Origin: a virus
Taxonomy: Duplodnaviria > Caudoviricetes
IMG/VR virus record: IMGVR_UViG_3300044262_000068
Location: 1-31,553 of that record
Strand: one strand, 5' to 3'
Length of the DNA stretch: 31,553 bases
Shown: positions 1,044 to 30,276 of the stretch, piece by piece
Numbering within the stretch: position 1 is the stretch's first letter
How the letters are laid out: every line of letters starts with the position of its first letter
The notes under the pieces: generated by a model
What the model was told of the DNA's origin: nothing
What the model saw: only the letters and a program-made list of their open reading frames with translations
Databases searched by the model: none
Translations under genes and position numbers: made by a program

Positions 1044-1260
1044 CGTCTGCCTCTTTGCACACATCGTAGTAGTTCTCAACCCACAGGCCGAAGTCCTCAA
1101 GCAACTCGGCGGCGTCCTCAAACTCAAGCCAGTACTCATCGCCCTCTTGAGCCTCAGCTTCGGCCACATAATCCTGGATGGCCTCTTCGGTGTCGTTGGG
1201 GCGGTTGGCCCTCAGAGTCTTTACTGCCCATTCCTTGCGTGCACGTAACACATCGTTCAT
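1030..1260 (-). CDS. Small highly acidic protein (candidate DNA mimic)
   Basis: AAAAGGAG RBS. About 23 of 76 residues are D/E; aromatic-rich. Confidence 0.75.
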   Translation of the reverse strand: MNDVLRARKEWAVKTLRANRPNDTEEAIQDYVAEAEAQEGDEYWLEFEDAAELLEDFGLWVENYYDVCKEADDGTD

Positions 1261-1278
1261 CTTGAGTCTCCTTTTGAT

Positions 1279-1333
1279 TAGCCCGTCGGTTTGTCGTATC
1301 CAGCGGCACCACGTGGAGGTGGGCTATGCCGCC
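1279..1333 (-). ncRNA. Minimal HDV-like self-cleaving ribozyme (candidate)
   Basis: Minus strand reads GGCGGC A UAGCCC ACC UCCACGU GGU GCCGCU GG AUACGACAAA CCGAC GGGCUA. It has P1 with a G1-U wobble, P2, P3, L3 UCCACGU, P1.1 CC/GG and a C-containing J4/2. No P4; P1 is 6 bp. Confidence 0.7.
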
Positions 1334-1352
1334 ATCCCCCTGTGCTATTCAG

Positions 1353-1514
1353 TTAGGCCACCTGGCTCTTGCGGACGATCTGCAACAGGCGCTCGACGGC
1401 CAGTGCGTCATACTTGCCGAAGGTGCTCTGCTTGCGCAATGCCTCACGAATCTTCTGCTCGTGGGCGTCGATGCGCTCTTTGACAGCGCGCTTGCTAAGA
1501 CTTTTTGTTGCCAT
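1353..1514 (-). CDS. Small basic hypothetical protein (53 aa)
   Basis: Below the ORF-track cutoff: MATKSLSKRAVKERIDAHEQKIREALRKQSTFGKYDALAVERLLQIVRKSQVA, with an AAGGAGA RBS. Confidence 0.7.
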   Translation of the reverse strand: MATKSLSKRAVKERIDAHEQKIREALRKQSTFGKYDALAVERLLQIVRKSQVA

Positions 1515-1710
1515 GTTGTATCTCCTTCATCTTGTTCAGGTCGGCCTGAGCGAAATGTACGCAATCGGCACATCCACTCACGAGACCGGGGTAGCCAGTG
1601 ACTATTACGCCTATTGCTCCGCACGATGCCCTGCCTCCCTCCGACTTCATTAGCATCGGAGAGAGGTTCGGGTCGTAGTGCACAGCATGATCATCTGTGC
1701 GTCGGGCCAT
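1495..1710 (-). CDS. Hypothetical protein, possible Zn binder (H...CG...CADC)
   Basis: Starts 1 nt after the upstream stop and overlaps the next gene's RBS. Confidence 0.6.
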   Translation of the reverse strand: MARRTDDHAVHYDPNLSPMLMKSEGGRASCGAIGVIVTGYPGLVSGCADCVHFAQADLNKMKEIQHGNKKS

Positions 1711-1711
1711 C

Positions 1712-1888
1712 TTACATCATCCAGGCCAGGAGGCCGGCGAGGACTGCGAAGACCGACAGGAGCTTGAGCCAGAAGATTGCCACCTGGCCAGCGCCGAACT
1801 TGGGTACGTACGTCTTGCTGTAGTACGGCTCGGCCTCTTGCCACTTATACACCCCGCCGCTATTGATACGAACCTTGCGATTATTCAT
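1712..1888 (-). CDS. Small membrane protein (58 aa, C-terminal TM helix)
   Basis: Below the ORF-track cutoff: MNNRKVRINSGGVYKWQEAEPYYSKTYVPKFGAGQVAIFWLKLLSVFAVLAGLLAWMM, with an AAAGGATAGGTG RBS. Confidence 0.7.
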   Translation of the reverse strand: MNNRKVRINSGGVYKWQEAEPYYSKTYVPKFGAGQVAIFWLKLLSVFAVLAGLLAWMM

Positions 1889-1903
1889 GATACACCTATC
1901 CTT

Positions 1904-2005
1904 TCGAATATACGGCTATTTGGATTAGATCGGCTTAGAACGATCTCTGCCGCATTCCTATGAGAACCTTGCCCCCCGGCTCTCATAGTCTCCTGCGCTA
2001 TTCGA
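1904..2005 (-). ncRNA. Circularly permuted (type-P5-like) twister ribozyme candidate
   Basis: Minus strand reads UCGAAUA G CGCA GG AGA [CUAUGAGAGCC-loop-GGUUCUCAUAG] GAA UGCG GC AG [AGAUCG UUCUAAGC CGAUCU]...UAUUCGA. P1, P2, P4, P5 and both pseudoknots can be drawn, but there are some non-consensus core bases. Confidence 0.55.
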
Positions 2006-2023
2006 TTGTTGCGATCTCTGCGG

Positions 2024-2344
2024 TTACTCGGCGGCTTCTTCTTTCTTGGTGTTAGCGCGCATGATCGGCAGTACGAAGGCGTCGTCTTCCAGAAGGTCTT
2101 GCAGGCGCTGGAGCTCATCGGCGGTTGCGTACAGGACGAACTTATTGCGGCCGTCTTCGCGCTTCGAATGCGCTTTCGCTTCAGCGCGCCAGGCTTCGAA
2201 ATTCACGATAACGTTGCGCGGGATTCGCGTATCGCCGACGGTCTCTTTCTCGACGATGAGATCGCCTTTCGCGATCGCCTTGCGAATATAATTCTCGCTA
2301 AGGCCTGATTGCTGCACTGCTTGCTTTATAGTAATACCGTTCAT
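2024..2344 (-). CDS. MerR/excisionase-like HTH DNA-binding protein
   Basis: N-terminus ITIKQAVQQSGLSENYIRKAIAKGDL (HTH_17/MerR-like pattern); AGGAG RBS. Confidence 0.8.
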   Translation of the reverse strand: MNGITIKQAVQQSGLSENYIRKAIAKGDLIVEKETVGDTRIPRNVIVNFEAWRAEAKAHSKREDGRNKFVLYATADELQRLQDLLEDDAFVLPIMRANTKKEEAAE

Positions 2345-2414: not shown

Positions 2415-2549
2415 ATTATACTGCTTATTAGAATTACTACCCGTAACAAAAATCACATTTTCTATGGTATCTTTATCACATCCTAAGGGGGATCTTTGTA
2501 CCCGGTCTTGGGGTGACATTTGTCACTAGTCAAATGTGATCTTTGTCAC
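2415..2549 (-). promoter_or_regulatory. Leftward promoter (-10 TATAAT, 2420-2415) with five phased GTGA-N6-TCAC-like boxes
   Basis: Boxes start at 2443, 2466, 2489, 2513 and 2536. The first is centred near -41.5 if +1 is about 2408. A 5'UTR stem AATAACAGC/GCTGTTATT sits directly before the RBS. Confidence 0.7.
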
Positions 2550-3120
2550 GGAGGTGACTTCCCAAGTTGACCAATGTGGGTAGAGTTGGGGAGGTGACTT
2601 GTCCCCCATTGTTGACCTTATTGGGTGGGCAAATGTGACACATGAGAGGGCACCCATATTGGGAGGGATTTGGGATGTGACTTGGCACATGAGAATAAGG
2701 TAAGTGGTAAGTAAGTGGATATGCCCACAAAGGTAAGTGGTAAATAAGTGGTAGGTGAAAGACATATGAGAATGGGTGGATGTGGACATTAGTGGTAGGT
2801 AAGTGGTAAGTAAGTGATAAGTGAGAATGGGTGGATGTGGGTTTTTAATGTGTCTCTCATCTATTCTCATGTGTCTCTCATGTGACTAAGGTGGGTAGTA
2901 GAGGTTTATGTAGGTTCACTAGGTGGTAAGTGAATAGTCCATGAGTGGAGGTGAGTAGTCCATGAGTGGATGCTAATGTGTCTTTCATGTGGTTCTAATG
3001 TGGTTCTAATGTGGCTCTCATATTGGACTCCCACTTCTCTCATGTGTCTCTCATATGACTCTCATATTGGGTTCACTTGTGACTCATGTGTCTCTCATGT
3101 GGTTCTCATGTGGTTCTCAC
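2550..3120. repeat. Non-coding low-complexity tract of 11-bp and 21-bp repeats (candidate packaging, terminus or origin region)
   Basis: AAGTGGTAAGT-type units at about 2700-2822. GTGARTAGTCCATGAGTGGA occurs twice. CTCATGTGGTT-type units hold an unbroken 11-bp register over 2973-3120. Confidence 0.8.
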
Positions 3121-3222
3121 CTTGCCCAGGCCCGGAGTTGACGTGATTTTTGTCCTATATGAGCTGTCAGTCCATCCAAACTATCGACCCCCCAAAATGC
3201 CCATATGGAGCATTGAATGTTT

Positions 3223-3710: not shown

Positions 3711-3952
3711 GGAAGCCTCATCAGCAACGCCACAATGAGCAGCGCAAGAATCAACGCAAGAGGCCAATACGATGGGAGACTCCATCCCTTCTTTCGTTTC
3801 TGTTTCCCCTCCACAGTAGTCAGGAGTCTCTGCAACGTGTCGTAACCTATCTCACCATGGTCGTGTTTGTTGATCGGGTACGCCTTCGTCTTGTACAGAT
3901 CAGCTGTACGCCGCCAATTCGCTTTGGTGGATTTGTCGTGTTTAGTGTTCAT
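3707..3952 (-). CDS. Small membrane-anchored protein
   Basis: C-terminal hydrophobic run WPLALILALLIVALLM; ATGA overlap with 3949..5052. Confidence 0.65.
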   Translation of the reverse strand: MNTKHDKSTKANWRRTADLYKTKAYPINKHDHGEIGYDTLQRLLTTVEGKQKRKKGWSLPSYWPLALILALLIVALLMRLP

Positions 3953-5052
3953 GGCCGTATCTCGATACCTCTCTTCTTCAGGGTTGAATAGAGTAACGTA
4001 CGAGTGACGAGGGTGTCAATCTCGATCGTTTCGACATCAACGTTATGTTGGTACTCGTCAACTGCGTAATCCAGGTTCTTGGGCGTAACGATGGTTGTGA
4101 GTCCCGTCCGTAATTTTCCGCCCCGCTTTTTGAGTGCGTGGATTATTTCGGCGACAGTACATCCAGCCACTCTACGGATTTCGGCTGCCCTAGCTCCTTT
4201 GTCATACATGTCGAGAGCTTTGTCCATATCCCCCTGTGCTATCTCGCGCCGCAAAGGTACATTCCTTGTGGTCAGCTCACGATAAAGTGCTGAGGTGCCT
4301 ATCTTTGTGACATCGTGTATCTGATCTACTGTGTGTCCTTCGAGATACATGTCGACTGCTTTCGCAAGTCTTGTTGGCGTATCTGACAACTCGCGTCGTG
4401 AAAGCTTGCGTGCGCCTACTTCCTTGTACAAACGGGACAACGGTATACCCGTCTCGGCTTGTATTTCAGGTACTGTCATCGAACTACTTTTGTACATGTC
4501 AACCGCACGTTGGACAATCTCGTCGTTTATGTTCATAGTAGAGCGTAGAGGTATGCCTCTCGCTTGTAACTCTATGTACAAGGCTGTTGGAGCCAATCCA
4601 GTTGTTGCGCTGATGTCCTTTACAGGTGCCCCATCAGCATACATCTGAATGGCCTGCTCCACCCCTTGTGACCTTCGAGGCGATTCGACACTCCTGAGAG
4701 GTACCCCTCTCTCATCGAGAATGTTGTATAAGGTGTTCAAAGACAGTGCCCACTTCTTTAGAACGTGTCGAACCTTGAGTTCGGGGTTGAGATAGTCCGC
4801 ACAGATCTTGTCTATCTCTGAGTCTGAACGTACTTTGGCGGTTGATACTTCATACCCTCGTGTGTTCAGGAGAGTTCTAATATACGTAGTAGTGTACCCC
4901 GTTTCGAGACGTATTTCGTTCAGGTCTCTAACTCCTCCTTCCCACATGTCAAAGACTACCTGATGAAATACATCGCTTGCCGGCTCTTTACGGCGCAAGA
5001 CCATAGACTTGTCTTCCTGTTCGTCGTTCTCCCAAGTAGCTAAGTCATCCAT
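3949..5052 (-). CDS. Protein with seven tandem homeodomain/resolvase-type HTH repeats
   Basis: Seven repeats of about 48 aa, consensus AVDMY..G..V.EI...TG.....LY..L..RG..LR. Confidence 0.85.
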   Translation of the reverse strand: MDDLATWENDEQEDKSMVLRRKEPASDVFHQVVFDMWEGGVRDLNEIRLETGYTTTYIRTLLNTRGYEVSTAKVRSDSEIDKICADYLNPELKVRHVLKKWALSLNTLYNILDERGVPLRSVESPRRSQGVEQAIQMYADGAPVKDISATTGLAPTALYIELQARGIPLRSTMNINDEIVQRAVDMYKSSSMTVPEIQAETGIPLSRLYKEVGARKLSRRELSDTPTRLAKAVDMYLEGHTVDQIHDVTKIGTSALYRELTTRNVPLRREIAQGDMDKALDMYDKGARAAEIRRVAGCTVAEIIHALKKRGGKLRTGLTTIVTPKNLDYAVDEYQHNVDVETIEIDTLVTRTLLYSTLKKRGIEIRP

Positions 5053-7132: not shown

Positions 7133-8498
7133 AGATAATTATCAGCGCTCAATACTTCTAGCCCGGAAGTATCACAAGGGGGAGCAGATGGCTCAGATAA
7201 CGGATCGTCTCAGACAGTTCCTTCCCAGTGTATCCGAAGGTGGGGAGGATTTTCGTCTCAATATATGCCGTGTGATCGTGTCCGCAATGACCGACAGAAT
7301 GAGGGTCATCGGTTTCGATTCTGTGGATACCAAAAAAATAGAGTGGGCTACAGAAGTGTGGGACGACAATAAGGGCCCAGTAGTCGAACTCGACTTGTAC
7401 GAAACGTTGCTTCGCGATGGCGAGGCTTTTGTAATCATTGACGTCGACCAAGAGACTAAAGAAATCTTTTGGCACGTCAATCCTCGATACACATCTCTTG
7501 ATGTTGGGGGCGACGGATCAGGCTGCAAAGCATTCTATGAGAATGATGACCCCAACCAACGACTCCAAGCGGTCACTAAAGAGTGGATTACCTACGACGA
7601 TCGAGGGAGAGTTAATCGTTGGAGAAACATTTACTACCCCGACCGAATAGCCAAACAAAAGCACAGCGGCGAGAAGTGGGTTACATACGACGAACCTTCT
7701 TGGAGAGATGCACAGGGGCAGCCTTTAGGTGTAGCTGCAGTACACTTCTACAACAAAGGATTCAAGAGAGAAGCGGAGGATGCGTTTACGCCTCAAGATG
7801 CTGTCAACAAAACGTTCTTAGATTTGTTGGCGTCTTCAGATCTAACCGCATTCCGCATTTTTGTGGCTCTCGGATGGATACCTACAATTGACGGTAAGGC
7901 ACCAGAAGAAGATCAGAGCAACTGGATGCCTATCGAACCCGGAAGGCTCATTGGTACTGACAAACCAAAGACCGAAGTATCTCTTGATACTATCGAACCG
8001 GGCGATCTGACCCACGTCATGAACACTGTCCAACAGATCATTATGTGGGCCAGTATGGTTACAAACACTCCTGTAAGTAGGTTCATCGCGACCAAGCTTA
8101 TCGCTAGTGATGAAACTCTCAAGCAGCAAGAGGAGCCCCTAGTAGCGAAAATTGAAGGGGCCAAGACACTCATATCATACTCGTGGCGTAAGGTGTTCCA
8201 ACTCACTGAAAAGATATGGAACGTGTTGTGGAGCCCTGAAGTGTCGGATCAGAAAGTCAAACCTATTTGGTGCCACTCAGCATCCGAAGAATCGCTGATG
8301 GCCAAGCTCAAAACCAAAAAAGAACTGGGTATACCAACCAAACAGATCTGGCGCGAGATGGGCTACACCGAGACGAAGATTCAAGCTATGTTGAATGAGC
8401 AGACTGAGGAACGTGAAACCGCAGCTGCTTTGATAAATCAAAACAGAGAGGAAGAAGGAGGCGAAGATGCCGACCAAGATCAAGAAGATCAAACGTGA
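7056..8498 (+). CDS. Portal protein (SPP1 gp6-like)
   Basis: Follows terL. Contains YHKGEQ, NICRVIVSAMTDRM.V.GF and LLRDGEAFVII, plus an acidic tail. Probable start at ATG 7056. Confidence 0.85.
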   Translation: MPAQVDTVTQLTPVDVAILESRSEAEDNYQRSILLARKYHKGEQMAQITDRLRQFLPSVSEGGEDFRLNICRVIVSAMTDRMRVIGFDSVDTKKIEWATEVWDDNKGPVVELDLYETLLRDGEAFVIIDVDQETKEIFWHVNPRYTSLDVGGDGSGCKAFYENDDPNQRLQAVTKEWITYDDRGRVNRWRNIYYPDRIAKQKHSGEKWVTYDEPSWRDAQGQPLGVAAVHFYNKGFKREAEDAFTPQDAVNKTFLDLLASSDLTAFRIFVALGWIPTIDGKAPEEDQSNWMPIEPGRLIGTDKPKTEVSLDTIEPGDLTHVMNTVQQIIMWASMVTNTPVSRFIATKLIASDETLKQQEEPLVAKIEGAKTLISYSWRKVFQLTEKIWNVLWSPEVSDQKVKPIWCHSASEESLMAKLKTKKELGIPTKQIWREMGYTETKIQAMLNEQTEERETAAALINQNREEEGGEDADQDQEDQT

Positions 8499-10590: not shown

Positions 10591-10641
10591 CTCCTTTCCG
10601 GTATAAGCTACGGAGACTCGGGGGACTCCGTAGCAAAGGAG
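10591..10641 (+). promoter_or_regulatory. RBS-sequestering stem-loop after the capsid gene
   Basis: Outer CTCCTTT (10591-97) pairs with AAAGGAG (10635-41), the next gene's RBS. Inner stem GCTACGGAG/CTCCGTAGC. Confidence 0.65.
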
Positions 10642-23883: not shown

Positions 23884-24471
23884 ATGTCTCATACGCGTCT
23901 CACACTTCTTCCCCTCCTAAGTCATATTATAGGTATGCACGATCCTTACGGAGTATCACACGGGGAGAGGGTTGCAGAATTAACATTAAAGCTTGCTGAG
24001 CGTTCGGGCAAGTTTGATAAGCAAGAGATGCATGATCTCGAGTTAGCTGGGTACCTTCATGACATAGGTAAGATAGGTCTTCCTGAAAGCATTCGGAGAA
24101 ATCCAGGAAGGCTGAACGATGCAGAGAGGGCTATGGTCGAACTCCATCCTGTACTCGGCGATCGGATACTTGCAATGGTTATGAACGGTACCATAAACAA
24201 GTTCGTGAGAGATGTAGTCAAGCATCATCATGAGAATTGGGATGGGTCAGGTTACCCTGACGGCCTCAAGGGCGAAGATATTCCTTTGGGCTCACGAATG
24301 ATACGGGTGTGCGACTTCTATGACGCACTGACTCACGTACGTGGTTACGCACCTGCCAAGACCCCTGAGGAATCTATCGAGTATATGGTGCGCGAACAGA
24401 CTATCGCTAAATGGGCTGATCCCATAGTCCTTGGGCAGTTCGTTGCTATGATGAAGGACACCCATAAGTAA
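23884..24471 (+). CDS. Stand-alone HD-GYP cyclic-dinucleotide phosphodiesterase
   Basis: DPY..HGERVA, LHDIGK, HP..G, HHHENWDGSGYPDGL.GE.IP, R...VCDFYDALT..R.Y. Confidence 0.93.
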   Translation: MSHTRLTLLPLLSHIIGMHDPYGVSHGERVAELTLKLAERSGKFDKQEMHDLELAGYLHDIGKIGLPESIRRNPGRLNDAERAMVELHPVLGDRILAMVMNGTINKFVRDVVKHHHENWDGSGYPDGLKGEDIPLGSRMIRVCDFYDALTHVRGYAPAKTPEESIEYMVREQTIAKWADPIVLGQFVAMMKDTHK

Positions 24472-25437: not shown

Positions 25438-25761
25438 TCATTTGTTATACACCCGAAGGTGCCTCCTCTTCATTCGTTTCATAAACCTGTGCAAGGAGGG
25501 GTTAGTTAGCTCGTGCTCTATGGGTTCGATGAGTTTGCACAGGGCGAGTAAGTTTTTACGATTCGAAAGTATCCATACCCAGCCTCCGTACTGCCTGTAC
25601 ACATGACCGCCGAAGACAAGAAGCTTGTCGCACTGGGGCTTGTACTTCGAGAAGAACCATAAGCGGTCGTGTACTTTACGCCTTCCATGAACATAGTGTC
25701 GGGAGAACTGGACGATCAGCTCTAAAGGACTCTCATTTCCACTTCGGGGGGATCTGCCCAT
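25438..25761 (-). CDS. Small basic protein resembling a degenerate LAGLIDADG domain
   Basis: LLVFGGHVYRQYGGWVWILSNRKNLLALCKLIEPI resembles the LAGLIDADG C-terminal half; no signature helix. ATG 25761 has a GAGG RBS. Confidence 0.45.
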   Translation of the reverse strand: MGRSPRSGNESPLELIVQFSRHYVHGRRKVHDRLWFFSKYKPQCDKLLVFGGHVYRQYGGWVWILSNRKNLLALCKLIEPIEHELTNPSLHRFMKRMKRRHLRVYNK

Positions 25762-28094
25762 CGTTGCCTCACTTTGGTGTCTGCTTTCCATTTGACTTGG
25801 GGTAGATGATATTGACCTTTCTCCTCCATAACCCTCTTCACATAAGGCCACACCTCCTCTGCTTCATCCTCATCTACTTCAACAAGAATGCTGTCATGTA
25901 CTAGAAGAAGAACATCGAACCCTTCTTCCTCCAGCTGGCATCCCGACAGGAGAGTGAGGTCGCTTGCGGTGCCCGCAACAGGTGCATGTACTGCTGCCTT
26001 GCGAGCATCGTCTTCGTTCGCCTTCGTAATGATCTCTATATGACGCCTGCGACCGAAAGGTGACTCGACGTATCCGTGTTCGTCCAGAAACGCGAATTGG
26101 TCTTTCCTGAACTGAGCTAAGCGGGGCATCACCTTGTTGTAGTTATGAACGAAGTCCTTCGCGATCTTCAACGGGAGTCCCGCGTCCATGGCGAAGCTGA
26201 ACTCACTTCCTCCGTACAGGTAACTGAAGTTGAACATCTTCGTCCGCATACGTTGTTCTTTCGTCCACCCAGGCCCATACATTGCAACTGCAACTTCTGT
26301 ATGCAGATCGCGATCGTGCTCATACACGTCCAACAAGAAAGGCTCCATCGCAAGTACTGCAGCCACCCGTAGCTCTGCTTGTGAGTAGTCAGCGTCTACA
26401 ATCACTTTCCCAGGGCGGGCAACGAAGCACGCTTTGATCATGGCACCCCAAAAGCCTTTGTTATCTTTCTCGCTCTCGGCTCTTGGGATGGTCTGCAGTG
26501 CAGGATTGCGCGCGGAGAGTCTTCCAACCTCGTTACGATGCTGCAAGAAGGTTGTGTGTACACATCCGTCCTGATCAAGGCTCTCGTAGATGTTGTCTGC
26601 ATACGACTGCTTCATTTTGGCTACGCGACGGTATTCCAATAACTTGTCGATGAATGGATGCTTTCCCTGCATCGCCTCGATTGCTGCATGATTGGTTGAT
26701 CTGGGTTTGAGTCTCCTGCTCTTCTGTTCAGGAAACCCCAACTCATCGTAAACTACAACAGCCACTTGTTGGGGAGATTGAAGATTCAGCTGTCCGGGTT
26801 CTCGTCCGATAATCTGACACGCTTCTGATGCAAGTCGATCCATCTCCGATTGCATGTAGTCTCTCACCTTCATCAGGTAATCTACATCGATCTTGATACC
26901 ACGAAGCTCCATACGGACGAAAGCGTTCGAGGCTCTCATGACAATGTTCTGGAACGGCCAGTCGTATCGCCCCTGTGCTTCCAACTTGGCGCCGAGGATT
27001 TTACGGAACTCCAGAGTCATGTAAACGTCTATGACACCGTACTTCGCAAACGGCTCAAACGGGATCTTGGAGTACCGATCATTCCGAGTTGCAAGGTATT
27101 GCTTGATGAGCCTATCCTCATAGTCAGGTATTCCGAAGTACTCTGTAGTCAGCTCCTTCAAGCCATGCTCTCCGTTCTCGTCCAGAAGATAGTGAGCAAG
27201 CATAGTATCGAAGTCCAAATGAATGTCGAGCCCCAAATGACTCTTCAAGAAGACTTGGTCGAACTTACCGTTGTGACCTACAGTACGTACCCTATTGAAG
27301 AACTTCTGCAACACCGGTATCGCTTCTGGAGTGTCGTAGAGCATAACGTCATCCACGACTACGTTTGTAAGACCCCAGATCGGGTCGTCCCACGCAATCT
27401 GCAACATGAGAATCGGATCACCAGGCTTCCCGAAGTAATCAACATACCAGCGAGTCTGATCCGTTTCGATGTCGAACGCGACCCATGAGTCGTCAGGACA
27501 TGCTTTGAGGAACGCGGCCAGTACACCCACATCCTGTATATGGTTGACTGTGGGCTCGAGCCATTCAGGATTGATCACAGGGGGACCGAATACAATTCTT
27601 TCGATATCAGCAAACAAGTACTTGCTGTCGCCAGGACTCCGAAGTAGGTACGCTGGGTGGTACGTATGTGATGCTTTCCTGTCGCCCCAATCAAACACCA
27701 CACCACGATCATAGTTCTGCATGCCAAGCGCGTCAGTGGCTACTTTGCCGAGGGCAAGCACAGGGCCTTGTACGTCTTCCAACTCTTCTTCGAGTCTCGG
27801 CATACAAGCAAGAACCTCTGTGTAATGAGGTTCCCGATTACCTGGAGGGCGACACATTACAACGTTCGTCTTGTACACATCTTCACGATCTACGTTTACC
27901 TTCTGTAAGGCGTAGTCAAGAAGCGCTCCGCTGGGTCCTACAAAAGGTTCTCCTCGATCTACCTCAACCTGTCCAGGACCTTCACCTACTACAACAAGAC
28001 GAGCATCTTTGGGGCCCGAAGGGGGAACGACAGGACAATCGATTAACGAACATTCCCAACAACGAGCCCCACTAAGTTTAGATGTAGAGTTCAT
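25722..28094 (-). CDS. polA: Family A DNA polymerase with N-terminal family-4 uracil-DNA glycosylase and 3'-5' exonuclease domains (SPO1-type)
   Basis: UDG: CWEC, GEGPG, PFVGPSG, CRPPGNR, HPAY. Exonuclease: FDIET, HNGKFD, YGVID. Polymerase: DYSQAELR, R...KMFNFSYLYG, VHDS. AGGAG spacing favours ATG 28094. Confidence 0.95.
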   Translation of the reverse strand: MNSTSKLSGARCWECSLIDCPVVPPSGPKDARLVVVGEGPGQVEVDRGEPFVGPSGALLDYALQKVNVDREDVYKTNVVMCRPPGNREPHYTEVLACMPRLEEELEDVQGPVLALGKVATDALGMQNYDRGVVFDWGDRKASHTYHPAYLLRSPGDSKYLFADIERIVFGPPVINPEWLEPTVNHIQDVGVLAAFLKACPDDSWVAFDIETDQTRWYVDYFGKPGDPILMLQIAWDDPIWGLTNVVVDDVMLYDTPEAIPVLQKFFNRVRTVGHNGKFDQVFLKSHLGLDIHLDFDTMLAHYLLDENGEHGLKELTTEYFGIPDYEDRLIKQYLATRNDRYSKIPFEPFAKYGVIDVYMTLEFRKILGAKLEAQGRYDWPFQNIVMRASNAFVRMELRGIKIDVDYLMKVRDYMQSEMDRLASEACQIIGREPGQLNLQSPQQVAVVVYDELGFPEQKSRRLKPRSTNHAAIEAMQGKHPFIDKLLEYRRVAKMKQSYADNIYESLDQDGCVHTTFLQHRNEVGRLSARNPALQTIPRAESEKDNKGFWGAMIKACFVARPGKVIVDADYSQAELRVAAVLAMEPFLLDVYEHDRDLHTEVAVAMYGPGWTKEQRMRTKMFNFSYLYGGSEFSFAMDAGLPLKIAKDFVHNYNKVMPRLAQFRKDQFAFLDEHGYVESPFGRRRHIEIITKANEDDARKAAVHAPVAGTASDLTLLSGCQLEEEGFDVLLLVHDSILVEVDEDEAEEVWPYVKRVMEEKGQYHLPQVKWKADTKVRQRWADPPEVEMRVL

Positions 28095-28311
28095 ATAACA
28101 CATACTCCTGAGCCTCGACTAGTGAGCCAAAGAATCTCTCTGACCCTTTTGGAGCTATGATCCAAATCTGGTCGGCTTTGAGTGAACGGATAACAGCAAC
28201 CGCATCGGGCAGTTGCGCTGCGTCATTGGCGACTAAAACACACAGCTTGTTCTCTCTGTCATATACTATGTGAGCGTACGACTCACTAGTGCCAAAACTA
28301 ATTACTGGCAT
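28078..28311 (-). CDS. Hypothetical protein (77 aa)
   Basis: Fills the gap between the TGT-like gene and polA with short overlaps; start MPVISFG. Confidence 0.55.
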   Translation of the reverse strand: MPVISFGTSESYAHIVYDRENKLCVLVANDAAQLPDAVAVIRSLKADQIWIIAPKGSERFFGSLVEAQEYVLYELYI

Positions 28312-29047
28312 TGGGGTAGTTCCAGACAAGCGACCAAAGAGTGTTGACGTTGTTGTAAGCCAGTGCTGTGTCAAACTTACGGCCCCAAGTATGTGACACA
28401 TGATCGATACGTTCAGATGACAGTGTAATGCCGTGTTGGGCAAGAGCGAACGGAAGAGCTGTGTCGATGCCTCTTACCCAACTCCTGAACTCTCTCAAGG
28501 ACGCTATCTCGGACCATGGATCATCCCAGATACCCAACAAGTGGATATGGTACGTGGTGTGCCAATTGAGTTTGTGCACTAGTTTGAGAATGCCTGCACG
28601 TCCTCCCGGAAACCTCTCAGCATGTTTAGGGATGCATAGAGTTGCGAACTCCATGTTGCCCGCCAAGAGGTTTGCGCAAGCCCACCACTCATGAACTGTG
28701 TTGCCTTGTGGAACCACTGCACGCATCTTAGGCGGGACAGCATCAAGCACTTCAGGGTTAGTTGACGCTCTGAATGTTGCAGCGCTGTCTCCCATAACAT
28801 CAGGAAGCACAATCTCGTCAGCGTTGATTGCTTCTGCCGCTTTCATCAAGTCGCTTAGAGACAGGGTTCCTTTCTCCGCTGCTCCATTGTCCATAAGTAT
28901 GAACTGACCTCTTTCGGAGGCTTCGCGGTAGAAATCTCTGTATGCTTTACTTTGTAGCACCTCCGCTGCCAGCACGAGATGATACCCCATTTTGAACATC
29001 TCGACAACCTTGAACCCTTTCGGGTCAGTAATGAGGGCCAGTTTCAT
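28298..29047 (-). CDS. TGT-fold protein, putative DpdA-type 7-deazaguanine DNA transglycosylase
   Basis: ILMDNGA, LPDVMGD, VVPQG, HIHLLG and RGIDT follow the TGT motif order; adjacent to folE and queE. ATG 29047 has a GGAGG RBS. Confidence 0.7.
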   Translation of the reverse strand: MKLALITDPKGFKVVEMFKMGYHLVLAAEVLQSKAYRDFYREASERGQFILMDNGAAEKGTLSLSDLMKAAEAINADEIVLPDVMGDSAATFRASTNPEVLDAVPPKMRAVVPQGNTVHEWWACANLLAGNMEFATLCIPKHAERFPGGRAGILKLVHKLNWHTTYHIHLLGIWDDPWSEIASLREFRSWVRGIDTALPFALAQHGITLSSERIDHVSHTWGRKFDTALAYNNVNTLWSLVWNYPNASN

Positions 29048-29049
29048 TC

Positions 29050-29616
29050 TTACCTCCCAATTAGATTGAGGAATTCTCTGCGAGCCTCTCCTGCAGTTAG
29101 AAAGACCCCACGCATTTCGGATGTCCTCATGACTCCATTGTGCTCGCGAATGCCTCTGGAACTCATGCATGTATGTGTCGCCTCGATGACTACAGCTACA
29201 CCCATGGCCTCGAGTTCGTGTTTGATGAACGAGGCAATCTCTGCAGTCAGCAATTCTTGAGTCTGAGGGCGGCATGCGAAGTGGTGGACTATACGAGGTA
29301 TCTTGCTAAGTCCTACCATGAGTTTGTTGGGTACGTAGCCAACATGAACCTTCCCAACAAACGGAAACAGATGATGCCTGCAGATTGATGCGAACTCAAT
29401 GTTGCTGACAGTGATGAGTTGATTGACGTTGGCAGGGAAGGTCGTGACTTTGAAGTCCATCTCCTTTTTAGGAGAGAACTCTCTCATCGCCCTGATCCAT
29501 CTCTCAGCCGTTCTAGCTGCTCCGTCATCCCAGGCATCGTGCCCGAAGATTTCTACTAAGAAATCTCCTAACCTGTCGAGCATTGGTACCTCTTTGTGTT
29601 TGCGTCCTTTCGCCAT
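29050..29616 (-). CDS. folE: GTP cyclohydrolase I
   Basis: TAER, FASICRHHLFPF.G.VHVGY.P, GLSKIPR, RPQTQE, EATHTCMSSRG. Confidence 0.95.
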   Translation of the reverse strand: MAKGRKHKEVPMLDRLGDFLVEIFGHDAWDDGAARTAERWIRAMREFSPKKEMDFKVTTFPANVNQLITVSNIEFASICRHHLFPFVGKVHVGYVPNKLMVGLSKIPRIVHHFACRPQTQELLTAEIASFIKHELEAMGVAVVIEATHTCMSSRGIREHNGVMRTSEMRGVFLTAGEARREFLNLIGR

Positions 29617-29619
29617 GAT

Positions 29620-30276
29620 TCACCTCACCTTTAGTGTGTATTGCAGCCGCCAACCAAATCGGGTTGGCAGGTTGTGGAAATCGATTTCGCCGTCGGCACC
29701 CTTCAGGTACTGCATCGTCTTATGGATTGATGGTGTTTCTGGAGGACACCCTTCAGGCATGAGTACGATGTGAATGCGCGGATCGCGTCGCTCGTAGAAC
29801 ATGTAGTCGATGCCTTTTTGAATGTCCTCAGGTTGAATGACATCATCGATGACGTACTTGACTTCGTCGACAATGTTCTTGATCGCCATAGGGGCCTCGA
29901 ACCCTAGATTCTGTTTAGGTGACCACGTCACCCATCGAGGTCTGATTTTACCTTTGAGAGCGTTCTGACCTGAGGTCTCGAGTTGCGTGTTCAGGTTCAA
30001 CTCGTGCAGAGCTGCCAAAAGAGGGTCGAGGTTCCAGTAGGTAGGCTCGCCGCCTGTGATGACAACATGTTGGTTCCCAAACGATTCAACAACCTTTACG
30101 ATATCTTCCAAGGTGTAAAGCTCCCCTCCCTGTGCCCATGTGTACTTAGTGTCGCACCAAGGGCAACCCACAGTACACACCTGTAAGCGGATGAAGGTGC
30201 TTGGTACTCCAACCAAGACACCCTCACCTTGAACGCTACTAAACATCTCGTTGACACGGTATTTTATTGTTGTCAT
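29620..30276 (-). CDS. queE: 7-carboxy-7-deazaguanine synthase (radical SAM)
   Basis: EMFSSVQGEG...G.PSTFIRL, CTVGCPWCDT, VVITGGEP, LETSG, TWSPK. Confidence 0.93.
   Translation of the reverse strand: MTTIKYRVNEMFSSVQGEGVLVGVPSTFIRLQVCTVGCPWCDTKYTWAQGGELYTLEDIVKVVESFGNQHVVITGGEPTYWNLDPLLAALHELNLNTQLETSGQNALKGKIRPRWVTWSPKQNLGFEAPMAIKNIVDEVKYVIDDVIQPEDIQKGIDYMFYERRDPRIHIVLMPEGCPPETPSIHKTMQYLKGADGEIDFHNLPTRFGWRLQYTLKVR

Follow-up and report, generated by a model that had tools for sequence, protein, structure and literature searches.

Two different ribozyme folds as predicted partial cut points in a leftward small-gene transcript of a tailed phage, and a run of G shared before the cuts

What self-cleaving ribozymes do in bacteria and phages is an open question (PMC6765202, PMC5408937). 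The closest described systems are prophages in which tandem hammerhead ribozymes flank genes and cleave three native transcripts of about 2 kb (PMC3088659); the same report proposes that hammerhead clusters yield operon- or gene-length mRNAs, and it mentions an early halovirus transcript that has one hammerhead 13 nucleotides (nt) ahead of a start codon. According to a 2019 review, the same processing idea applies to hammerhead and twister ribozymes, and the exact motif seems unimportant (PMC6765202). The present work deals with a twister-like and a hepatitis delta virus (HDV)-like ribozyme fold located in two intergenic gaps of a leftward block of small genes in the virus record IMGVR_UViG_3300044262_000068. 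This record, taken whole (31,553 bases) and referred to in full as the window, belongs to a tailed phage with terminase, capsid and DNA polymerase genes (PHROGs). In phage T7, early polycistronic RNA is cut between genes by RNase III, a host protein, which leaves 5'-phosphate ends; the likeness of the locus to that processing concerns the outcome only and is drawn by analogy. An earlier note on this DNA had put the two RNAs forward as a candidate for an undescribed system, which they are not, ribozyme cutting of polycistronic prophage RNA having been reported in 2011 (PMC3088659).

As in those prophages, several self-cleaving RNA folds occupy polycistronic gaps and flank single genes or small groups of them, of varying identity (PMC3088659), and the operon arrangement used there, that is at least two ribozymes in sense orientation between co-oriented genes, is also found here. 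The locus differs in having a type-P5 twister and a minimal HDV-like ribozyme, two unrelated folds, and a G-run shared before the cut. Besides, the 2011 report shows cleavage for three hammerhead clusters, whereas here cleavage is a prediction.

It is judged rather probable that both RNAs are protein-free, and probably partial, cut points dividing one leftward transcript into three messages. The cuts would separate gene 1, genes 2 to 4, and genes 5 and 6, and they would probably be incomplete, since slow cutting is predicted for this twister copy and inhibition by the G-run ahead of it for the HDV-like copy. Cleavage by twister and HDV ribozymes leaves 5'-OH and 2',3'-cyclic phosphate ends. 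The first unit would end in the 11-base-pair (bp) P1 hairpin of the twister with its loop of six G, the second would have a 5'-OH and the P4 hairpin at its start and a run of five G at its end, and the third would start with the whole HDV knot, 5 nt before the ribosome-binding site. The likely purpose of such an arrangement would be to uncouple the lifetime and the translation of the units. The two RNAs lie in the gaps 1889-2023 and 1261-1352, and between 2344 and 687 no further non-coding gap is sizeable. An open reading frame of 71 amino acids (1710-1495) covers 1711-1515 and has a homolog in the relative L011 (phmmer E 1.5e-5, all-against-all comparison of 12 small proteins).

The first gap contains, on the minus strand at 1926-2000, a complete type-P5 twister fold with P1, P2, P4, P5, T1 and T2 all present, recognised by descriptors, a covariance model and relatives; the class named in the earlier note holds. 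The predicted cut lies between G1957 and A1956, and the 5' end that had been expected at 1956 carries the general acid A. P5 (3 bp) pairs 2000-1998 with 1928-1926, P2 (4 bp) pairs 1997-1994 with 1954-1951, P1 (11 bp) pairs 1988-1978 with 1968-1958, and P4 (4 bp) pairs 1944-1941 with 1932-1929. Pseudoknot T1 joins 1991-1989 to loop L4 at 1939-1937 (AGA/UCU) and pseudoknot T2 joins 1950-1949 to 1934-1933 (GC/GC). The catalytic residues A+1 (A1956), A+2 (A1955) and the general-base G (G1993) are in place. Helices P1, P2 and P4, both pseudoknots, the P5 termini and the catalytic A and G are shared with type-P5 twisters (RF02684; PMC5408937), and so is the position between a stop codon and a Shine-Dalgarno (SD) sequence, which 33 of 35 control copies have too; the window copy departs from them in its sub-threshold score, in having G at the A46 and N-1 positions, and in its 11-bp P1 closed by a loop of six G.

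In the second gap there is a minimal HDV-like ribozyme without the P4 helix (1279-1333, minus strand), with a predicted cut between 1334 and 1333 and the catalytic C at 1289. Its fold is complete, and both the class and the 5' end at 1333 had been correctly foreseen. P1 (6 bp, with a G1.U wobble) pairs 1333-1328 with 1307-1302, P2 (6 bp) pairs 1326-1321 with 1284-1279, P3 pairs 1320-1318 with 1310-1308, and P1.1 uses GG at 1301-1300, which together give the nested double pseudoknot. The loop L3 (UCCACGU, 1317-1311) fits the 7-nt consensus type UYCNCGY, and the same letters align to RF02682. The segment J4/2 reads CCGAC (1289-1285), with the catalytic C first and one nucleotide beyond the CNRA type, and L012 has CCAA; an additional position is allowed there in minimal HDV-like ribozymes (PMC10879173). 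The phage ribozymes of that report share with the window copy the nested double pseudoknot, the lack of P4, the length of about 55 nt, the intergenic sense location and the catalytic C in a J4/2 with one extra nucleotide. The 6-nt spacing in P1 is the same in 35 of 53 pattern-selected phage HDV copies. Against a covariance model built without the window copy, the RNA scores 32.5 bits (E 1.3e-9), the training set having been fetched with a pattern derived from the window core. It is unlike the phage ribozymes of PMC10879173, among them theta ribozymes, which cut at most 5 nt from a tRNA 3' end, in these points: the window has no tRNA, the phage comes from sediment and not from gut, and in place of a tRNA or hairpin the leader is complementary to L3. 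The earlier note had each ribozyme ending a few nt from the next SD; this holds for the HDV-like RNA (end 1279, SD 1273-1268) and fails for the twister, which ends at 1926, 21-28 nt before an SD that starts at 1904 or 1897.

Rfam models, the check named in the earlier note, returned nothing in the window at gathering thresholds, the best match being HDV-F-prausnitzii (19.3 bits, E 2). Structural descriptors found exactly two sites in the window and none in 150 dinucleotide shuffles per class, a test that is generous because the descriptors were written after viewing the sequence. As predicted folds, both RNA elements are real and better than chance. A twister pattern tailored to the window gave 10 matches, none with the fold and mostly in coding-looking sequence, and a search with a tight HDV pattern gave none.

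Several other identities were tried and rejected. A pistol ribozyme was considered for the first gap, where the twister fits fully and the relatives score as RF02684. A theta or tRNA-related role was discarded for want of a tRNA in the window. A conserved mini-ORF behind the G-run is not supported either: an AUG stands at zero spacing in two of three HDV copies and none is conserved in the twisters. A GGA loop of the CsrA type is missing in three of five twister loops, the window's included, and pairing of the G-loop with the HDV-like RNA across the gene block was rejected because L011 has the loop and no HDV-like RNA.

The gene set of the window is common to three IMG/VR records of 48-50 kb (G001, G002 and G003), whose terminases are 71-72% (G001 and G002) and 49% (G003) identical to that of the window. 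Of the sequencing runs listed with this DNA, one is a DNA run, a sediment metagenome that may be the source of the window, and none is an RNA run. Its contig (depth 13) is identical to the window over 600-2600, G1992 included, and is not independent evidence. Homolog and cluster look-ups returned no usable taxon for a host. Single-sequence searches of IMG/VR with the helix-turn-helix (HTH) protein encoded by gene 1 or with the terminase found no relatives, and alignments were needed: an alignment of 12 HTH proteins fetched 14 loci, of which 12 were examined after removal of the duplicates L014 and L018. L011 is the locus of G001 (a 47.9-kb record), L015 has the same sequence as L012, and L023 is a weak HTH match that is probably unrelated. 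Among these 12 loci, covarying ribozymes stand at the same gaps, which is a check that the earlier note had asked for. A twister directly follows the HTH stop codon in L011, L012, L017 and L019, and an HDV-like RNA lies in the next gap of L012 (6600-6651) and L019 (993-1046), the sequence of L017 ending too early to show whether one follows. Together with the window this gives five twisters and three HDVs, referred to below as the clade copies.

The twisters of L011 and L019 exceed the Rfam threshold (52.5 and 47.7 bits), and those of L012 and L017, with T2 swapped to GU/AC, are not detected by Rfam; T2-swapped and A46G twisters are thus variants that Rfam misses. Across the five twisters, T1 takes four Watson-Crick forms (AGA/UCU, CGA/UCG, CGG/CCG in two copies, and UGG/CCA), T2 is GC/GC in three copies and GU/AC in the other two, P2 has three forms, and P1 consists of five unrelated stems of 6-11 bp. 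Since T1 varies and stays Watson-Crick while the P1 stems are unrelated, it is the fold that is kept and not the sequence. The three HDVs have P3 as ACC/GGU twice and GCC/GGC once, a compensatory change, and P2 in three forms. Among the best 80 of 316 terminase-related loci (894 kb), many of which stop short of the small-gene region, the twister was found only in the two closest relatives and an HDV-like fold in one of these two and in the distant locus L208. The locus offers a small natural series on the same genes, with two ribozymes, with the twister only, or with none.

The window twister lacks the conserved trans A.A pair (A28-A46 in rice numbering), having G at 1992. The residue equivalent to A46 is A in the four relatives, and among the five clade copies G is found there, as well as at N-1, only in the window. 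This copy does not reach the gathering threshold of RF02684 (37.6 bits); it scores 22.4 bits (E 0.007) against a covariance model built without it, whose training set included two relatives, and it is filed here as a variant homolog; only the L011 and L019 copies are counted as full members of RF02684. Every substitution at A46 of the rice twister, as at three other positions, gives a relative activity below 0.2 (PMC5113685); the supplement to that paper lists for A46G fractions cleaved of 0.07 by sequencing and 0.16 by gel, and for the wild type 0.82 and 0.95. As reported for natural twisters, A-to-G at the trans A.A pair lowered cleavage, G at N-1 was tolerated, and about 94% of the candidates were active in tests (PMC11662667). 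Given the G at the A46 position and the published A46G data, slow or partial cutting is to be expected, and the window twister probably behaves in this way.

The same residues feed a second explanation, a real minority possibility, according to which only the HDV-like RNA cuts usefully and the twister copy is in decay, with its P1 hairpin and G-loop as the parts on which selection still acts. It builds on the two substitutions unique to the window copy, on the low activity of every A46 substitution (PMC5113685) and on the lowered cleavage of natural twisters with A-to-G at the trans A.A pair (PMC11662667), and it would agree with the G5-loop hairpins that occur in L016 (two), in L021 and after the capsid gene of the window without any ribozyme. 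On the other hand, all Watson-Crick elements of the window twister are intact, including a T1 (AGA/UCU) found in no other copy, which argues for recent selection on the fold; A46G retained 7-16% cleavage in 2 h according to the supplement to PMC5113685, and the effect of this substitution may differ in a type-P5 scaffold. This explanation and those that follow overlap, and the likelihoods given to them are not exclusive.

Related to the wider use of such layouts, a consensus pattern gave 22 twister loci, and Rfam applied to 18 of them and to two HDV loci yielded 35 distinct control twisters. An SD and a start codon lie at most 60 nt downstream in 33 of these 35 (at a median distance of 17 nt; of the two exceptions, one is truncated by the end of its locus), and five unrelated control loci have 3-5 twisters within 3 kb. 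For HDV, a search with a core pattern led to 79 loci, in which 53 distinct folds have P1; 12 of these folds follow a tRNA-like end, and of the other 41, 17 precede an SD and a start. The order ribozyme, SD, start codon is not special to this phage. It bears on a third explanation, which is unlikely, that cleavage is a down-regulator whose 5'-OH ends admit a 5' exonuclease as with glmS, in a host of the RNase J type, giving polarity or a short downstream pulse. Cleavage of glmS followed by degradation is given as the one well-understood bacterial case (PMC6765202), and the outcome would depend on the host and its RNases. Nevertheless, a structure opens each 3' product (the P4 hairpin in one, the whole HDV knot in the other), the SD is retained, the same layout is seen in 33 of the 35 controls, and ribozyme-cut 5' ends are reported to raise stability in E. 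coli circuits (PMC7536230).

The feature common to both RNAs is a run of G. A G6 run lies in the P1 loop of the twister (1972-1977, minus strand), where, after a cut, it would stay within the hairpin that forms the 3' end of the upstream product. A G5 run (1336-1340, minus strand) follows the stop codon of gene 4 by 12 nt and precedes the HDV cut by 2 nt. Such a run of five or six G is found 5' of the cut in all eight clade copies (five of five twister P1 loops and three of three HDVs), which are related copies and not eight independent events; in all three HDVs its distance to the cut is exactly 2 nt, and a stop codon precedes it by 8-12 nt. None of the 35 control twisters has a loop with at least four G, and a G5 leader occurs in one of 53 HDVs, that one being L012's own record, which leaves 0 of 52 controls. 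The G-loop persists through the full turnover of the surrounding stem, and the run is found again in a ribozyme class unrelated to the first. A G5 loop also closes long hairpins that follow stop codons without any ribozyme in L016 (two), in L021 and after the capsid gene of the window. Throughout the genome, G5-loop hairpins are only mildly enriched (16, against a shuffle mean of 7.0 and maximum of 11; C5 loops number 13), so weight is given only to long stems after stop codons. The window example lies past the capsid gene and ahead of the next SD (10607-10634, plus strand); its stem is 9 bp long, and its G5 loop matches the G-loop of the twister P1. Listings of the open-access literature showed neither a G-run described ahead of phage ribozymes nor a natural ribozyme gated by ribosomes. 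The shared G-run is a new detail, and it may control or mark the cut.

The G5 run of the window (1336-1340) is complementary to CCUCC at 1319-1315 within the HDV-like ribozyme. When only nested pairs are folded, the helix between G-run and CCUCC reaches probabilities of 0.65, 0.98 and 0.94 in the three HDV copies, with P1 at most 0.31, and masking the G-run restores P1 to 0.96 in the window and 0.65 in L019. With a 30-nt leader, pairing of the leader with L3 is 0.98, 0.89 and 0.86 in the three copies and exceeds 0.3 in none of 57 control HDVs. CCUCC is also the core of the anti-SD of 16S rRNA. The duplex of the G-run with the anti-SD, taken as a 9-mer, has an energy of -9.4 kcal/mol, compared with -7.3 to -9.2 for four real SDs; the E. 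coli 16S tail is quoted in PMC7536230. This identity of CCUCC, together with the position of the run 8-12 nt past a stop codon, makes the ribosome the simplest candidate ligand of the G-run.

These calculations suggest a fourth explanation, of doubtful standing, in which cutting is gated by ribosomes: the G-run would block the HDV-like ribozyme and bind the anti-SD, the block lasting until a terminating ribosome or 30S subunit covers the run, and the RNA would be cut only when the upstream gene is translated. The invariant placing of the G5 in three of three copies, the dominance of the alternative helix, the return of P1 on masking in two of the three, and a duplex with the anti-SD at least as strong as those of the four real SDs all speak for it. 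A precedent for slowing comes from the CPEB3 ribozyme, in which the sequence just 5' of an HDV-type cut pairs with the ribozyme (Alt-P1) and leader misfolding slows it about 250-fold (PMC8233481). That ribozyme lies in a mammalian intron and the pairing competes for P1, whereas here P3 and L3 are involved and the leader is SD-like and beside a stop codon. Gating leaves unexplained the G-loop of the twister, for which no conserved partner in cis was seen, and the G-loop hairpins without ribozyme; moreover, it relies on three related copies, masking fails in L012, and GGGGG pairs with CCUCC just as it pairs with 16S rRNA, so that the complementarity may be incidental. A broader proposal, which also seems improbable, is that G5-6 is a shared control tag at mRNA boundaries, which would imitate an SD, pair with the anti-SD-like CCUCC, hold the HDV-like RNA off until a ribosome from the upstream gene covers the run and would mark 3' ends through the same ligand in twister and hairpin loops. 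If this were true, it would be a natural ribosome-gated self-cleaving switch tying mRNA processing to translation. Should the G-run gate the HDV-like RNA and ribosomes release it, the locus would be a case of a phage ribozyme under regulation and could serve as a compact part for coupling mRNA cutting to translation; without gating, it is one more example of a layout known since 2011. Finally, it is very improbable that the two cuts free unit 2, with its 5'-OH and cyclic phosphate, for circularisation by a host ligase of the RtcB type, for which such ends are substrates (PMC8782182): the 3'-terminal G-run of L019 is complementary to a C-rich stretch just after its twister, but this is not conserved in the window or L012, L011 has one ribozyme only, and tandem hammerheads examined for circular products are reported to have given none (PMC3088659).

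Returning to the preferred reading of two partial cut points, several observations weigh against it. Both elements are below Rfam thresholds in the window, and the twister may simply be decaying, given that A46G is unique among five clade copies. A 5'-OH end may destabilise the RNA rather than protect it, depending on the host. The predicted hold on the HDV-like RNA is not uniform either: masking the G-run leaves P1 at 0.08 in L012, and a 15-nt leader gives a weaker contrast (0.12 in L019, and above 0.3 in 2 of 57 controls). P1 is also below 0.5 in 31 of the 57 control HDVs, in a folding model that omits pseudoknots and Mg2+ and may for this reason overstate the inhibition. Moreover, an HDV is missing from the whole 47.9-kb record of G001, and both ribozymes are missing from G003, which means that the pair is dispensable in the wider group. 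In favour of the reading, six loci without a ribozyme (L013, L016, L020, L021, L022 and L024) carry a terminator-like hairpin past the HTH gene, in keeping with an RNA boundary being needed there, though several of these may represent the second HTH paralog and not the same position.

As regards the genes and signals of the block, which are on the minus strand except where no strand is assigned, the earlier note had the transcript start at a promoter at 2415-2420. The -10 box there is a perfect TATAAT, and the start would be near 2408; no -35 hexamer is recognisable, and a promoter scan did not call it. A box of this type is also found upstream of the HTH homologs of L011, L012, L013, L017 and L024. 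The leftward transcript would begin at this promoter, and to call it early is a reasonable guess. A palindromic site resembling TGTGA-N6-TCACA (2442-2457, no strand assigned) is centred about 41.5 nt upstream of the presumed start, with a second copy at 2535-2550. It sits where a class II activator would bind and resembles a box of the CRP/FNR family; alternatively, it could be the operator of the phage HTH protein. Similar palindromes, seen as pattern matches, lie upstream of the HTH gene in G001 and G002.

Gene 1 (2024-2344), which would form unit 1, encodes an excisionase-like HTH protein of 106 amino acids, with weak matches below cut-off to the Pfam families HTH_17 and AbiEi_4 and 11 homologs of 50-67% identity. 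The motif AAYYGAATA (1999-2007, a pattern match) precedes the twister; elsewhere in the window it occurs once, at 1354-1346, ahead of the HDV-like ribozyme, and it is also found before the twisters of L011, L017 and L019 and is absent ahead of both L012 ribozymes. Candidate SDs for gene 2 are found at 1893-1904. Unit 2 would comprise gene 2 (1712-1888; 58 amino acids with a hydrophobic C-terminal segment), a homolog of which follows the L019 twister (E 2.4e-5); gene 3 (1495-1710; 71 amino acids, Cys-containing), which abuts gene 2, overlaps gene 4, lacks an SD of its own and has its homolog after the L011 twister (E 1.5e-5); and gene 4 (1353-1514; 53 amino acids, basic, with a strong SD), without homolog among the small proteins of the relatives. 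Unit 3 would comprise gene 5 (1030-1260; 76 amino acids, acidic), whose SD AAGGAG (1268-1273) lies 5 nt past the HDV-like ribozyme, and gene 6 (687-1043; 118 amino acids), which overlaps it. Gene 5 has downstream homologs in L011 (E 1e-11), L012 (1e-12) and L019 (4e-5) and no match in protein-family searches, and gene 6 has a weak homolog at another place in G002. The small genes around the ribozymes are thus partly homologous among relatives, and their number varies.

The hairpin that the earlier note had placed downstream is real, an inverted repeat at 628-676 (no strand assigned) with a 17-bp stem, GTGAC/GTCAC arms and a z-score of -5.1; it lacks a U tail and abuts a TATAAT box that comes directly after it. 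Inverted repeats of this kind (GTGAC...GTCAC) also lie upstream of -10 boxes in relatives, so that the repeat may act in the DNA, as an operator or part of a promoter, instead of as a terminator in the RNA; it would be either the end of the unit or the operator of the next one.

Some further observations concern regulation and RNA structure. Clusters of TGTGA-N6-TCACA-like sites upstream of -10 boxes without -35 occur in the window (2442-2457, 2535-2550 and about 281-320, the last identified by eye), in G001 (39179-39311) and in G002 (7314-7666), and they suggest activation by a host protein of the CRP/FNR family or autoregulation by the phage HTH protein. A further HTH gene, a paralog that has a -10 box of its own, lies at 183-1 of the window, where the contig end truncates it, and two HTH paralogs are also present in G002 and G003. 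Long folded 5' leaders precede the HTH genes of L011 (5775-5992) and L012 (7105-7273), with energies of -77.6 and -54.4 kcal/mol that stand without shuffle comparison; neither has an Rfam match at threshold.

Twister-P5 arrays within 3 kb were seen on the unrelated phage contigs L109 and L122 (five each), L116 and L124 (four each) and L125 (three). L078 and L079, which are one contig, have two HDV-like cores and a descriptor match to twister-P1, not confirmed by Rfam, within 6 kb, and L074 has two HDV-like ribozymes 734 nt apart together with a RAGATH-16 RNA. In the unrelated 95-kb phage L119, a twister-P5 is accompanied by four similar intergenic structured elements (about 1140-1240, 1785-1895, 2095-2200 and 2490-2600), each with a long hairpin, a short conserved hairpin and an SD; they have no Rfam match except hairpin-type noise, and they are candidates for an uncatalogued processing RNA. 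The AAYYGAATA motif occurs in three of the gaps of L119.

The leftward block adjoins a repeat-rich non-coding stretch. Between the HTH promoter and the upstream genes, at about 2600-3140, there are short imperfect non-coding repeats with strong strand asymmetry, a possible origin or genome-end region. Elsewhere in the window, at 28298-30276 and 25722-28103 (minus strand), genes resembling folE and queE (7-deazaguanine pathway), with scores below the NCBIfam cut-offs, have as neighbour a DNA polymerase of family A with a fused uracil-DNA glycosylase-like domain, a region common to G001-G003. A gene for an HD-GYP-like phosphodiesterase (23884-24471, plus strand) ends the structural arm and is also present in G001 and G002, and a protein of 367 amino acids with tandem HTH repeats (3949-5052, minus strand), divergent from the small terminase subunit, is kept in the relatives.

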